This document shows, piece by piece, positions 1-4,037 of a stretch of DNA of 32,000 bases. The DNA is from Nitrosopumilus maritimus SCM1 (GTDB taxonomy: Archaea; Thermoproteota; Nitrososphaeria; Nitrososphaerales; Nitrosopumilaceae). The stretch is from the NCBI RefSeq assembly GCF_000018465.1, contig NC_010085.1, positions 1,260,001 through 1,292,000 of the forward strand, written 5' to 3'. Within the stretch, counting starts at the first letter, position 1; every line of letters starts with the position of its first letter. A program made the position numbers and the translations under genes. Under the pieces are notes generated by a model, which ran no database searches, had not been told where the DNA came from, and saw only the letters and a program-made list of their open reading frames with translations.

Positions 1-70
1 CCAGACATTCACATTCGTATTCGATTGGTTTCAAGGCACTTTGGCTCATGTAAGCAGTTGAAAAAAATCC

Positions 71-78
71 CTTATATT
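71..78 (+). promoter_or_regulatory. TATA-like box upstream of ORF 107
   Basis: cttatatt, preceded by an A-rich BRE-like tract, is centred about 32 nt upstream of the TTG at 107. Confidence 0.3.
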
Positions 79-106
79 CGACGAAGTATACATACACCTA
101 TACACA

Positions 107-1366
107 TTGACAGCGTCAAAGAAACAAGTCGTATTTGAAAAAATTAGCGAGGTACTATCAGAGTACGAGTTAACAGGAATTACAAAAAATGAGCTTGTTA
201 GGATACTTCAGCAGGAAGGAATTGCTTCCAGAATGACATTTTACGAGTATTTCAAGGAAATGGCAGATCCAAAGAAAGCAAACATCATTCAGATGAGGAT
301 CCCCAAAGGTAAAATCAACGCGGTTTGCTTCCCAACACCAGAAAATCAGGCAATAGTGAAACTCAAGAAGAAATTCAAATCAATTTGTAATTTACTTGGT
401 TTGATCAAAAAGTACCCAGAGTTAGGGGATTGTTTTATTCCACTTCCAAGACTAAAGGGAGTTTACAATAGCAAAAAAATCCCACCAGACACAGGATTTG
501 CATACAATACTTCGTTGTATTCAGAAATAATTCATTCAGAAAAGACATCATTTGGAGAATCTAGATCATATATCACATTAAGGTCTCATAGAGCTAGACA
601 TGACATTTTAAAAGAACTCTCGGTGTTTTTGACTCACTATCTAAATTCTCCAAAAAGAAAGTACTCAAAACAGATTAAAGAAGAGTGTGTTAAAATTTTA
701 ACACCAACTTTTTTACAAGCATTAAAAATTCTAAGTGATGATTATGTAGACACAGTTAACGTATCAAAAGATCTTAAAAAAACAATTCAATCAACAGCCC
801 CAAAAGATTCAGCAGTATTCATAGGGTTGGTGAGGGCACCAATAATGCCACAAGTTGAAGTTGAATTTTTGAAAATTCTTGGAAGATATTACTATACAAT
901 AAGCAAGCAGTTTTCAAAAAACATGAAGATGGATTCATGTAAGGAACAAAAAATAATTTCGCAAGTGTTAAGAGATTTTTATTGTGTAGAAGAAGACTCA
1001 AATGAAAAATTAGATTCACAAGACATTAAAAGAATATTTCAATTAAACAACAATCTAGTTACAAATAGGGGCAAAGAAACTGAAATTAAAAATGAATACG
1101 GTTTTGATGAAAATTCTCTAGCCATAAAACTTGTCAAAACATTTTCAAAAGACGAGGAAGATACGGATGATTCATTACACATCAAAATTTACTATACAAA
1201 ATTATTTTTGTCATTAGGCATATTCACTAAGAAAGAACAGCAAATCATCGAATATGATTTGAAACATGATGAGAAAGTTTTCAAATCAAAAGAGTGGGAT
1301 GACCCAAAAGAAGGAAGAGAAGTGTTAGAGGCGTTGTTTCCAAGCGAAGTATCCAAATATGAATAG
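107..1366 (+). CDS. hypothetical protein (ORFan with N-terminal winged-helix-like segment); possible mobile-element cargo
   Basis: 419-codon ORF from the track. TTG at 107 is the longest-ORF start; the next in-frame ATG is at codon 42. A TATA-like cttatatt lies at 71-78. The N-terminus (EKISEVLSEYELTGITKNELVRILQQEGI) looks HTH-like, and I recognise no motif in the rest. It ends 5 nt from the convergent integrase gene. Confidence 0.55.
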   Translation: MTASKKQVVFEKISEVLSEYELTGITKNELVRILQQEGIASRMTFYEYFKEMADPKKANIIQMRIPKGKINAVCFPTPENQAIVKLKKKFKSICNLLGLIKKYPELGDCFIPLPRLKGVYNSKKIPPDTGFAYNTSLYSEIIHSEKTSFGESRSYITLRSHRARHDILKELSVFLTHYLNSPKRKYSKQIKEECVKILTPTFLQALKILSDDYVDTVNVSKDLKKTIQSTAPKDSAVFIGLVRAPIMPQVEVEFLKILGRYYYTISKQFSKNMKMDSCKEQKIISQVLRDFYCVEEDSNEKLDSQDIKRIFQLNNNLVTNRGKETEIKNEYGFDENSLAIKLVKTFSKDEEDTDDSLHIKIYYTKLFLSLGIFTKKEQQIIEYDLKHDEKVFKSKEWDDPKEGREVLEALFPSEVSKYE

Positions 1367-1371
1367 AAGTG

Positions 1372-2889
1372 TTATTTTTTACGTCTGAGTTTACTGGTTC
1401 TAGAGATTTTCTTGTCCATTTTCTGCATTTTTAACCTCATTTCCTCAATTTTTGCCTCCAAATCTTCATTTGAACTAGCACCCTTGGAAATTTCCTTAAA
1501 CTTTGAAAAGATATTCAATCTTCCAGAGGCTTTGATGTACTCTTTTCGCAATGTAGCAGTAAACAGATGTGCTTGTTTTTCATACGAGTCTTTTGTCTTG
1601 TGTCCAATGAACTCTTCAGCCAAATCATATCGTACATCAGAGTCTATCAGTACAGATTTCAAAAGATCACGTGTTTCATGAGGAGTTATTCGGTATTTCT
1701 TTCTTGACCCATTTCCTACTGATTTTGAGTTTAAAATTTCATCTAACCCTGAATTTTTTCGCATTCTCTCAAAACTTTTGGTTATCCAAGTTTCTTTGAT
1801 AGGTTTTTGGAAATTATTTAAGAAAAGTGCACTCTTGTTACTCATTTCTTGCCCTGTGATTTTTTTTCTGTAAGGAAGATAATCAATTATTGCAGAAACT
1901 GCGTCTCTATCTAAGAAACCAAAATGAGATACATTAGTCTTTACTCTAGTTAGTTCTATTAGAATTGGGCATTTCTTCAAATCCCATTTTTTATAATCTT
2001 CTGTTCCAAATGATTCAACCAGTTTTGACCAAACCTCAAAATTAAAGCGGTCAACCAGAGTAGAGGAATCAAGACCCCTTTGGAATTTACACAGGAATAC
2101 AGCTCGTTCAGTTAAACTTGGCTTTCCTATTGTTAGAATAGTTAGAAATTCATCTAATGTCATTATTTGTTCAGAATCATTATCATCATGTTGGATTCCT
2201 GCATTAGGATCAAAGCTTAACCCTATAGGCTCATCATTCTTTTTGAAATACTCATTTATTGCAAAAAAGGAGTTGTTTCTCATAGATTTGCTTTTTAATT
2301 TAACATCAGATTCCAAAAAGTATCTTTTTATCAATTTTACAAATGGTTTTTTATCAAAATGACTTTCAGAAAAGATTTTTAGAAAAGGTTCAACTCCCTT
2401 TAGAGTTACTTTCTTTGTTACTTTCTTGTAACTGTCTTTACTAGTTTGAACTTCTGCTGTATACTCTAGAGTTTTTCCAAAGATCCAATTATTGAAATAA
2501 TGTAGATGTCTTGTGTAGGTATCTTTTGTTCCATCTGTAACAGATTTGATATTTTTACGATTACTACCCCTCAGTTGACTTCTAAAATAAGATACAGTTT
2601 CTAATTTGCAAAAATCATCATACAGTATTGGAACAGAGTCATTTGGAATTTCTTTTAGAACACCAATCTTCTTGCCAATCGAAATTGCTTTGTAAACAAC
2701 TGCTAAAGTTGCCTCCACAGTATTTCTTCTTTGAGTAAATTCGTTTTTGTGTTCTTTAGCAAATGCTTTAGAATCAATCCTCTCGCCCTTTTTCATTACT
2801 GCTAAACATCTAGCATATTGTGGACGAATATCAAACCCATAATCTTTCTTTGAATCAAATTTCTTTAGAACTTGGTAAACCTTCAACAT
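1372..2889 (-). CDS. tyrosine recombinase / phage-type integrase (intact, 505 aa)
   Basis: The C-terminal domain carries the tyrosine-recombinase residues in canonical order: R (FQRGLDSS), K (TRVKTN), HxxR (PHETRDLL), H (IGHKTKD), Y (DSYEKQ). It has a long N-terminal core-binding-type region and a basic C-terminal tail. It lies about 250 nt from the 3' side of a co-oriented tRNA-Ser gene. Confidence 0.8.
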   Translation of the reverse strand: MLKVYQVLKKFDSKKDYGFDIRPQYARCLAVMKKGERIDSKAFAKEHKNEFTQRRNTVEATLAVVYKAISIGKKIGVLKEIPNDSVPILYDDFCKLETVSYFRSQLRGSNRKNIKSVTDGTKDTYTRHLHYFNNWIFGKTLEYTAEVQTSKDSYKKVTKKVTLKGVEPFLKIFSESHFDKKPFVKLIKRYFLESDVKLKSKSMRNNSFFAINEYFKKNDEPIGLSFDPNAGIQHDDNDSEQIMTLDEFLTILTIGKPSLTERAVFLCKFQRGLDSSTLVDRFNFEVWSKLVESFGTEDYKKWDLKKCPILIELTRVKTNVSHFGFLDRDAVSAIIDYLPYRKKITGQEMSNKSALFLNNFQKPIKETWITKSFERMRKNSGLDEILNSKSVGNGSRKKYRITPHETRDLLKSVLIDSDVRYDLAEEFIGHKTKDSYEKQAHLFTATLRKEYIKASGRLNIFSKFKEISKGASSNEDLEAKIEEMRLKMQKMDKKISRTSKLRRKK

Positions 2890-2938
2890 TAGAAATAGTC
2901 AGAAAATTAAAGATAATAGGTGTATTTGACAGCTTTAA

Positions 2939-3100
2939 CTATAATTCAAACTCTTGACGGCATTTTTCGCACTTTGCACGTTCTTCACCAGGAGAGCCTA
3001 AGATGAAAATTTTTCCAATCGTTTTACAAACGGGACACATTCCAGTTGTTGCATTTTTAGGACCTGTGCGTATAATTTTTTGAGTTTTTCTTCGTCCCAT
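2939..3100 (-). CDS. small zinc-ribbon protein, Elf1/DUF701-like (53 aa), absent from the supplied ORF track
   Basis: Minus-strand ATG at 3098-3100 and TAG at 2939-2941. My translation is MGRRKTQKIIRTGPKNATTGMCPVCKTIGKIFILGSPGEERAKCEKCRQEFEL. A basic MGRRK N-terminus followed by CPxC...CxxC is the layout of Elf1 in eukaryotes and TACK archaea. An AT-rich TATA-like element (3121-3135) is centred about 28 nt upstream. It could instead be a mobile-element zinc-ribbon gene. Confidence 0.45.
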   Translation of the reverse strand: MGRRKTQKIIRTGPKNATTGMCPVCKTIGKIFILGSPGEERAKCEKCRQEFEL

Positions 3101-3135
3101 GAAAAAACTTCCCGAATCGGTCTATTAAGTTTTAA

Positions 3136-3222
3136 TGGCGCGGGGAGGGGGATTTGAACCCCCGTGTCCTTGCGGACATGGGATTAGCAATCCCACGCCC
3201 TACCAGGCTAGGCGATCCCCGC
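3136..3222 (-). tRNA. tRNA-Ser (anticodon GCU), type II with long variable arm, CCA encoded
   Basis: The reverse complement folds by hand as GCGGGGA TC GCCT AGCCTGGTA GGGC G TGGGA TTGCTAA TCCCA TGTCCGCAAGGACAC GGGGG TTCAAAT CCCCC TCCCCGC G CCA. This gives a 7-bp acceptor stem, 4-bp D stem, 5-bp anticodon stem, GCT anticodon, 15-nt variable arm and a GTTCAAATC T-loop. No intron is present. Confidence 0.9.
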
Positions 3223-3278
3223 ACAAAGATGGCTAGAATTAATCTGTAAATAAGTCAAACTTTGGAGAATATTTTCTT

Positions 3279-4037
3279 CTAAGCGTTGTCTAGTTCATCA
3301 TGAAATTGACTGTAATTTTTCACAATTTCATCAATTGGGACACGTTTTCCACCTACAATTTTCAGGTCAACATTGACCTGTTTGTCTTTAATTGTCAAAA
3401 TATTGTATGTATTTTCAAATAGTCCACGTACTCTTTCAGATGTTGCAGTACCTGCATTTACAACAGTCAAGGTTCCAAAATTCCAAGCCCAAGGTCTGTG
3501 TTTATGACCACATAAAACAACATCAACTTCTGAATCAAGTACAGTTCTCAAAACATCACCAGCATCAACTACAGTAAGTTGATCAGAGCCCGTATCAGGA
3601 ATTGCAATAAGATGATGATGCATTGCAACGATCTTTATCTTGTCTTTGTATTTTTTCATAGTTCTTTCAAGCCAAAGATTTTGTCTATAACCAACTTCAC
3701 CTTCATTTCTGTCAGGTCTCGCAGTACCAACAGTAACTAAAACAACATCATTATCCAATTCATTTACGGTTTGAAATGGAAAGAATTTTTTGAATAAAAG
3801 ATAACCAGTATTTCTGTAATCATGATTCCCACTAATTGCAATGATTTTTTTTGTGTTAAATTTTTCCAGTAAAGATTTGCATTTTTCATATTCTTTCATT
3901 AATCCTTCATTTGTCAAATCACCAGTAATTACAATTACATCAGGATTCAACTCATTGACTTCACTAACTAGTACATCAAATTTCTCTTCCAAAAATTGAG
4001 AGCCAATATGAAGATCAGATATTTGAACTATAATCAT
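3279..4037 (-). CDS. metallophosphoesterase (calcineurin-like phosphoesterase family)
   Basis: Motifs occur in canonical order: SDLHIG, GDLTNEG, GNHD, HHH, GHKH. Confidence 0.85.
   Translation of the reverse strand: MIIVQISDLHIGSQFLEEKFDVLVSEVNELNPDVIVITGDLTNEGLMKEYEKCKSLLEKFNTKKIIAISGNHDYRNTGYLLFKKFFPFQTVNELDNDVVLVTVGTARPDRNEGEVGYRQNLWLERTMKKYKDKIKIVAMHHHLIAIPDTGSDQLTVVDAGDVLRTVLDSEVDVVLCGHKHRPWAWNFGTLTVVNAGTATSERVRGLFENTYNILTIKDKQVNVDLKIVGGKRVPIDEIVKNYSQFHDELDNA

Follow-up and report, generated by a model that had tools for sequence, protein, structure and literature searches.

We analyzed a 32,000-nucleotide stretch of the genome of Nitrosopumilus maritimus SCM1, a model ammonia-oxidizing archaeon, and found that its first lines hold the right-hand end of an integrated mobile element. 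The genome is a single contig of 1,645,259 bp (NC_010085), and the stretch, hereafter the window, spans positions 1,260,001-1,292,000. The element is a site-specific insertion bounded by att repeats; it is 7.53 kb long and occupies genome positions 1,255,417-1,262,937 (window -4,583 to 2,937). Only its right 2.9 kb lie in the window, and the left end is 4.6 kb beyond it. The integration target is the 3' end of a small zinc-ribbon gene, and the tRNA-Ser(GCU) gene found close to it is merely a neighbor. Our reading of the locus as a whole is that of a cryptic integrated element with this target, a metal-related cargo, and membership in a modular family, and we set its probability at about 80%. 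A preliminary description, based on the letters of the window alone, had already proposed that an element ends here and that its body lies leftward, outside the window, and the boundaries reported below bear this out. It had also held that the type of element could not be determined; with the whole genome at hand, a small, cryptic, plasmid-like element with metal-resistance cargo is found.

The boundaries were established by comparison with related genomes. The right flank of the insertion, composed of the tRNA, a metallophosphoesterase gene, and an Iso_dh-family dehydrogenase gene, was taken to 40 same-genus genomes, and stretches of 14-20 kb around the locus were compared from 10 of these. 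Empty sites, which the preliminary description had suggested looking for, were found in five congeners, where genome position 1,255,419 is joined straight to approximately 1,262,938. Two of these relatives (G045 and G046) share 88-90% nucleotide identity with SCM1, and the other three (G012, G019, and G003) share 77-84%. At the five empty sites, the flanking alignments overlap by 11-16 nt, and the 9-mer ACTATAATT is present as a single copy in each relative and as two copies in SCM1, one per breakpoint. The direct repeat that flanks the insertion is identical at 9 of 9 positions as ACTATAATT, and at 11 of 12 positions when read as the 12-mer ACTATAATTYAA. The left junction reads ...TTTTTAG-ACTATAATT-TAACATAGG..., the right junction ...GCTTTA-ACTATAATT-CAAACTCTT..., and the empty-site junction ...TTTTGG-ACTATAATT-CAAACTCTT.... 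The 9-mer occurs only 24 times genome-wide, both strands included.

The right copy of the repeat covers the TAG stop codon and the last two codons (...E-L) of a 53-aa zinc-ribbon gene. The preliminary description had placed this open reading frame (ORF) in the run of the element. It is instead a host gene, present in every relative examined: it lies beside the tRNA in all five empty-site genomes, and its product is 88-97% identical in five further relatives that carry other insertions. Because the gene is kept beside the tRNA with and without an insertion, we regard it as a conserved host gene and as the integration target. The att core consists of its last two codons and the stop; therefore, the coding sequence is unaltered by the insertion. 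No Pfam or NCBIfam family was matched by the protein at the cut-off, and Pfam zinc fingers were seen below threshold only (IBR_1 and Cas12f1-like_TNB). The transcription elongation factor Elf1 was considered as an identity and rejected, as no Pfam or NCBIfam match was obtained and the features in common are only an MGRRK N-terminus and two CxxC pairs. The metallophosphoesterase gene on the other side of the tRNA is likewise a conserved host gene and a stable marker of the right flank of this hotspot.

The integrase gene lies next to the right repeat, with 49 nt between its start codon and attR. The 505-aa product matched Pfam Phage_integrase with 35.5 bits (cut-off 27.1; E = 1.1e-8) over residues 303-435, and with 36.8 bits in the genome scan. 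R271, K317, H404-x-x-R407, H430, and Y436 are invariant in 27 homologues, down to 37% identity, and the HxxR and GHK...Y blocks align with those of another SCM1 recombinase. The full R-K-HxxR-H-Y set ascribed earlier to this frame is thus supported by both the Pfam match and the invariant residues. The claim that the integrase is intact also stood: the gene is unsplit, in contrast to the SSV type, and lies next to the att site. In this, it resembles the SNJ2-type and pNOB8-type (type II) archaeal integrases, whose genes are undisrupted by integration and lie beside att. Unlike these, it has an N-terminal region of about 250 residues with no assigned domain, and only six residues separate the second His from the Tyr; in addition, it showed no sequence-level match to any solved recombinase in the PDB, either as a single sequence or as a profile. 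A total of 259 homologues were found; within the genus they are unevenly spread and occur in multiple copies, with representatives in 8 of 24 genomes and up to eight copies in one.

Two other accounts of this end of the element were weighed. The preliminary description had the element inserted at the 3' end of tRNA-Ser(GCU), which would make the zinc-ribbon ORF element-borne and the body extend far to the left. It is true that thaumarchaeal elements most often target tRNA genes (PMC6563490), and in one relative, G015, another insertion, of 3.65 kb, is found in the 3' end of the same tRNA, between two TGGCGCGGGGAG copies. However, no second same-strand copy of any tRNA segment of at least 14 nt is present in SCM1. 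Whole-genome searches with exact 14-mers and blastn-short, made with the tRNA or the 2880-3260 zone, returned no direct repeat to the left and matched other tRNA genes only; a leftward repeat of the tRNA 3' part or of the 2890-3135 segment, which the preliminary description had suggested searching for, was not found. As the zinc-ribbon gene adjoins the tRNA in five insertion-free genomes, this account is refuted for SCM1, and we grant it hardly any credence. Even less is left for the notion of a domesticated or housekeeping recombinase, i.e., a XerA-type dimer resolvase or an invertase, the former having been named earlier as a way in which the element could prove illusory. A weak NCBIfam likeness to XerC and XerA was observed over the catalytic domain (E = 1e-3 to 7e-3), but the score on the XerA model was 15.9 bits against a cut-off of 220 (NF040815). 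Moreover, the gene is missing from the closest relatives, whose sites are empty, and it is flanked by att repeats; the distribution in 8 of 24 congeners described above already refutes the housekeeping role.

The insertion in G015 lies at 8319-11980 of L045 (G015:C68), and its TGGCGCGGGGAG repeat spans approximately 19 nt. A 400-aa ORF next to the partial tRNA copy gave sub-threshold matches to CDC48_N and DUF5643 and is not an integrase. This insertion indicates that tRNA-Ser(GCU) is an att site elsewhere in the genus, which puts a distance of 200 bp between two hotspots. SCM1 also has two more tyrosine recombinase genes beyond the three published elements of this strain, at genome positions 1,213,462-1,213,941 (a 442-aa ORF, L060:1030-2358) and 1,120,126-1,120,632 (a 351-aa ORF, L062:1282-2337). 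With scores of approximately 61-64 bits, both fell far short of the cut-off of 220 of the archaeal XerA model; one of them may be the true XerA and the other the mark of another uncatalogued element.

The features of the element and its flanks are compiled in Table 1. Those listed in the preliminary description were all recovered at the same positions with ARAGORN and the ORF list.

Table 1. Features of the SCM1 element and of the adjoining host genes.
Feature	Window position	Genome position	Strand	Basis or remark
attL		1,255,408-1,255,419		Outside window; 11/12 match to attR 12-mer ACTATAATTCAA
442-aa methionine-rich protein		1,255,511-1,256,839	-	
206-aa CDF exporter		1,256,918-1,257,538	-	Pfam Cation_efflux
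ArsR-family repressor		1,257,597-1,257,926	+	Pfam HTH_5
97-aa hydrophobic (membrane) protein		1,257,999-1,258,292	+	
44-aa zinc ribbon, two CxxC pairs		1,258,297-1,258,431 (L004:18297-18431)	-	
102-aa protein		1,258,585-1,258,893	-	
325-aa protein		1,258,902-1,259,879	-	
57-aa Cys-rich protein	Window part 1..49; Met at 47-49	1,259,876-1,260,049	-	First gene of the operon
419-aa protein	107-1366	1,260,107-1,261,366	+	
Tyrosine integrase, 505 aa, intact	1372-2889	1,261,372-1,262,889	-	Pfam PF00589
attR	2938-2949 (core 2938-2946)			Core ACTATAATT, 12-mer ACTATAATTCAA; alignment to five empty sites
53-aa zinc-ribbon gene (CxxC...CxxC)	2939-3100		-	ORF list; host gene, attB
tRNA-Ser(GCU), anticodon GCT	3136-3222		-	ARAGORN; host gene adjoining target
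Calcineurin-like metallophosphoesterase	3279-4037		-	Pfam Metallophos, E = 9e-21; immediately right of tRNA

The left 2.9 kb of the element are cargo, a soft-metal stress module made of the ArsR repressor, the short CDF exporter, the Met-rich 442-aa protein, and the 97-aa membrane protein. We regard this module as cargo because the core likewise comes with ArsR and Met-rich genes in a sister element, L057, which occupies a different site, next to a FEN-1 gene. The GC content is 33.6% for the element and 34.2% for the genome, with 31.8% in the core and 36.4% in the cargo. An att-like sequence, AACTATACTTCCA, with one mismatch to AACTATAATT, was observed at genome positions 1,258,178-1,258,190, inside the 97-aa ORF and between the metal cargo and the replication core. 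The core contains a minus-strand operon that encodes, in this order, the 57-aa, 325-aa, 102-aa, and 44-aa proteins. The first of these genes had been noted earlier as a possible divergent ORF starting at nt 49 and running off the window, and it proved to be a real Cys-rich gene, conserved in the sister elements L055, L056, and L057 with 58-86% identity. In the sister element L069, a called gene of 44 aa shares approximately 75% identity with the conserved 44-aa zinc-ribbon ORF. On the opposite side of the core, the end of the 419-aa ORF and the stop codon of the integrase are separated by 5 nt (1367-1371). In the 292-bp gap at genome positions 1,258,293-1,258,584, three 12-nt repeats with a spacing of 50 nt were considered as iterons and rejected, as they are the CxxC codons of the 44-aa ORF. 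The same gap folds no better than shuffled sequences (z = 0.24), and no origin was found there.

Profile searches of the 419-aa ORF and the leftward genes, from which the preliminary description expected clues on capsid, replication, or conjugation functions, succeeded in part: the cargo genes matched HTH_5 and Cation_efflux, and the 419-aa protein gave no family. Capsid, packaging, and conjugation genes were not recognized in the element with Pfam, PHROGs, or fold searches, in which five small or unassigned ORFs received no functional assignment. The 419-aa protein had been described as lacking a recognizable family, and in agreement, none was found in Pfam, PHROGs, NCBIfam, or PADLOC. Its AF2 model (pLDDT 85, pTM 0.85) contains an N-terminal PadR/MarR-like winged helix, at approximately residues 1-100, which gave the sole PDB match (Z about 10); the remainder is mostly helical and matched no known fold. 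There are 37 metagenomic homologues, and one of 60 other same-genus genomes encodes the protein. The 305-aa gene found in the same slot of sister elements is not homologous to it.

The second large protein of the core, with 325 residues, is a candidate replication initiator. In its model, residues 15-78 fold into a winged helix and residues 110-265, where pLDDT is approximately 90, into a beta-rich core. The exhaustive profile search collected 395 clusters of this family. In 44 diverse members, Y246 is invariant and H113, W211, D221, K248, R258, and E260 are nearly so, with K248, R258, and E260 at 90% or more; the tyrosine stands in an R-x-Y-x-K motif that is followed by R-x-E. The protein was found in 4 of the 60 other same-genus genomes, and the 325-aa and 419-aa proteins have 37-58 metagenomic homologues, which co-occur on contigs. 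When residues 105-280 were compared with the ESM Atlas, the nearest clusters by features were Rep_trans and Phage_CRI (score 0.94), and by structure, a TM of 0.60 over 157 residues was obtained with a cluster in which 81% of the members are Rep_trans. In the hhalign comparison with pT181 RepC, FIRIYAKK, containing Y246, was placed on FIRIYNKK, containing the catalytic Y191 (P = 0.027); over all profile-profile comparisons, the similarity was confined to 12-31 columns. Other searches were unproductive. Foldseek against the PDB gave poor whole-chain matches only (TM < 0.21), and winged-helix matches prevailed both in the wide structural search and in the shape search of the ESM Atlas. No Pfam family was assigned to the 44 members and no solved structure was reached by the PDB profile search; DUF7845 (PF25227) was not matched in the 44 members at E <= 1. 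Counterparts of the Rep_trans residues D46 and D142 were not found by the short RepC/Rep_trans alignments. On balance, our best guess, at even odds, is that the 325-aa protein may be a Rep_trans-like rolling-circle initiator, as its model and motif suggest.

Two groups of proteins are relevant for this comparison. One is Rep_trans, with pT181 RepC and pC221 RepD; the other is formed by the archaeal DUF7845 proteins, named Rep-Arvir and exemplified by SNJ2 ORF19, which are Rep_trans-like initiators recognizable by structure alone, as reported in 2026 (PMC13107129). The 325-aa protein is like them in combining a winged helix with a beta-rich domain of catalytic type, in the single invariant Tyr of R-x-Y-x-K followed by R-x-E, and in being, apart from the integrase, the sole large protein conserved in a small replicon that integrates. 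The domain order differs from that of Rep-Arvir, in which the catalytic domain precedes the winged helix, and no Rep-Arvir was reported from Nitrososphaerota in that work (PMC13107129). The protein departs from Rep_trans in the shorter spacing between Tyr and Glu and in leaving the Pfam model unmatched. Tentatively, and with less confidence than in the initiator function itself, the family might be a third, thaumarchaeal lineage beside bacterial Rep_trans and archaeal Rep-Arvir, with a domain order opposite to that of the latter. The same tentative proposal would make the elements plasmid-like replicons with three interchangeable modules, namely an integrase suited to its target (the zinc-ribbon or the FEN-1 gene), a Rep operon, and a cargo. 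As an archaeal counterpart of the tycheposons, such replicons would move AbiE, type I restriction-modification, and metal resistance genes between marine ammonia-oxidizing archaea, and the SCM1 copy, in a cultured model organism, would still be excisable.

Sister elements were found in other genomes and contigs. In L056, from a Nitrosopumilus genome of 1.64 Mb, and L057, on a 374-kb contig, the genes for the 102-aa, 325-aa, 57-aa, and 419-aa proteins and the integrase are present in the same order. Identity to the SCM1 counterparts lies at 77-86%, or within a wider range of 58-86%, for the 325-aa, 57-aa, and 419-aa proteins, and at only 47-49% for the integrase. In both elements (L056 11270-12840 and L057 11273-12860), the integrase gene abuts the 3' end of a FEN-1 gene (XPG_N, XPG_I), and the junction there is AACCATTGATC, which resembles AACTATAATTC. 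The diverged integrase together with the FEN-1 site indicates that the integrase module and the target switch together. The left ends of these two elements were not delimited, as the attL search returned ambiguous 11-12-mers inside called genes only. At the zinc-ribbon site, integrases 84-93% identical to that of SCM1 were found in several metagenome contigs, together with a 325-aa homologue. Six of these contigs carry a 93%-identical integrase beside the same zinc-ribbon, metallophosphoesterase, and Iso_dh-family dehydrogenase genes, with the 325-aa Rep gene, a different neighboring gene, and a cargo of AbiEii and HATPase. In L065-L067, this cargo is an MzaB-like HATPase with AbiEii (10876-15481 in L065, integrase 93% identical). 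The contig of P0099 has an integrase 88% identical, the zinc-ribbon site, and a complete type I restriction-modification system (HsdS, HsdM, HsdS, HsdR). Variation was also found within the core, since L055 encodes a 434-aa variant of the 325-aa protein, and the slot adjacent to the integrase is filled with either the 419-aa gene or the unrelated 305-aa gene. Collectively, these elements form a Nitrosopumilus family: an integrase and Rep core is kept throughout, integrases are swapped along with the target, and the cargo is interchangeable.

The zinc-ribbon site itself was variable among the relatives. At the same hotspot, G017 has a frameshifted and rearranged integrase, and G015 has a 73-codon integrase stub. 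G021 carries ArsR, a Met-rich fragment, and a cupredoxin-domain protein (L047 7365-8297), with no integrase, and an Amt ammonium transporter is found in G014 (L044 4564-5892). The hotspot between the transglutaminase-like and zinc-ribbon genes is a flexible island with niche-relevant genes.

As for the mechanism, the integrase would join attP, carried on a circular form of the element, to the attB that the zinc-ribbon gene offers at its 3' end, and it could later excise the element as a circle. The excised circle may replicate by the rolling-circle mode, an even bet, with the 325-aa protein as the putative initiator. The Cys-rich proteins of 57, 102, and 44 residues and the 419-aa winged-helix protein would act as accessory or regulatory factors, and the metal-stress cargo would be under the control of the ArsR-type repressor. 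Transfer from cell to cell via a helper or vesicles is speculative; such dependence seems probable because no capsid or conjugation gene was recognized.

Several observations weigh against our reading of the locus, and part of them concern replication in particular. The att core is short, with 9 bp exact, and is credible only through its coincidence with the independently defined breakpoints. The att-like AACTATACTT is found within the element at genome position 1,258,178, and this internal copy could mean that cargo and core are two tandem insertions, or it could be due to chance. No circular or excised form was seen, and the 6.5-kb contig of a close relative (L055) is an integrated form. Regarding the 325-aa protein, Pfam Rep_trans (PF02486) was unmatched in the genome at E <= 10 and in the 44 family members at E <= 1, and profile-profile comparison with seven Rep_trans proteins aligned 12 columns only, covering the same motif (P = 0.1). 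In addition, the wide structural search with the model found nothing above winged-helix matches (Z about 8), and the spacing from Tyr to R-x-E is nine residues shorter than in Rep_trans. Finally, the remnants in G017, G015, and G021 show that these elements often decay in place, so that the SCM1 copy may be immobile.

This last point leads to the alternative of a relic, i.e., an old site-specific integration that is now a fixed island kept for its metal-stress cargo, with the integrase and Rep-like genes unused. The decayed versions at the same site and the failure to find a circular form are in line with it, but all ten ORFs of the element are open, the catalytic residues of the integrase are intact, and the att copies are identical over 9 bp. 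In several metagenomes, moreover, integrases 85-93% identical occupy this site in the company of other cargo, which implies recent activity of the lineage, and we consider a relic unlikely. A small provirus, for instance of the pleomorphic or spindle-shaped kind, with structural proteins among the 419-aa, 97-aa membrane, and 102-aa ORFs, is a far weaker candidate. Pleolipoviruses and spindle viruses do have Rep-Arvir/Rep_trans-like initiators (PMC13107129), a search of a viral-structure library with the 325-aa model returned an uncharacterized protein of an 'uncultured archaeal virus' as best match (E = 2.5e-5), and the element does encode a membrane protein of 97 residues. That protein, however, lies outside the conserved core, and the slot of the 419-aa gene is taken by the unrelated 305-aa gene in sister elements. 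As none of the core genes matched PHROGs and no capsid, spike, or packaging ATPase fold was recognized, a viral nature appears very improbable, and an integrated, plasmid-like cryptic element remains our preferred reading.

The kind of element is known. The thaumarchaeal census of Krupovic et al. 2019 (PMC6563490) described cryptic integrated elements of 2.6 to 98 kb with att repeats of 9-17 bp, and already reported that att sites can be short and that protein-coding genes can serve as targets at their 3' ends. Because no capsid or conjugation genes were recognized, we place the SCM1 element in this class, and it shares with its members the small size, the intact tyrosine integrase, the short att, the protein-gene 3' target, and the metal-transporter or stress cargo. 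The SCM1 copy is absent from that census, which lists NitMar-E1 (778,111-794,916), NitMar-E2 (537,812-554,255), and NitMar-E3 (1,029,598-1,070,572) for this strain, with no overlap with the 7.53-kb locus. Moreover, the att sequence is absent from the tables of PMC6563490, and neither the 53-aa zinc-ribbon target nor the candidate replication protein family is described there. A description of this SCM1 element was not found in the literature searched, and the candidate Rep family and the joint swapping of integrase and target could be new parts. The tycheposons of Prochlorococcus (bioRxiv 10.1101/2020.12.28.424599) work in a similar way: they too are small, encode a tyrosine recombinase, and integrate into the genome of a streamlined marine microbe, where they occupy a hotspot and are linked to genomic variability. 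They differ in their bacterial host, and the parallel is one of analogy, not homology.

No genetic system or native plasmid is known to be available for SCM1. A small, apparently intact element with att sites, an integrase, and a candidate replication operon is a plausible start for a vector or an integration tool. The metal-stress module, with its ArsR-type sensor, CDF exporter, and Met-rich protein, is horizontally carried and not part of the core genome, which matters for the interpretation of copper and metal tolerance in marine ammonia-oxidizing archaea. If the assignment of the 325-aa protein is true, Rep_trans-like replication would extend to Nitrososphaerota. The family also illustrates how defense and resistance genes move at one hotspot in the streamlined genomes of these archaea.

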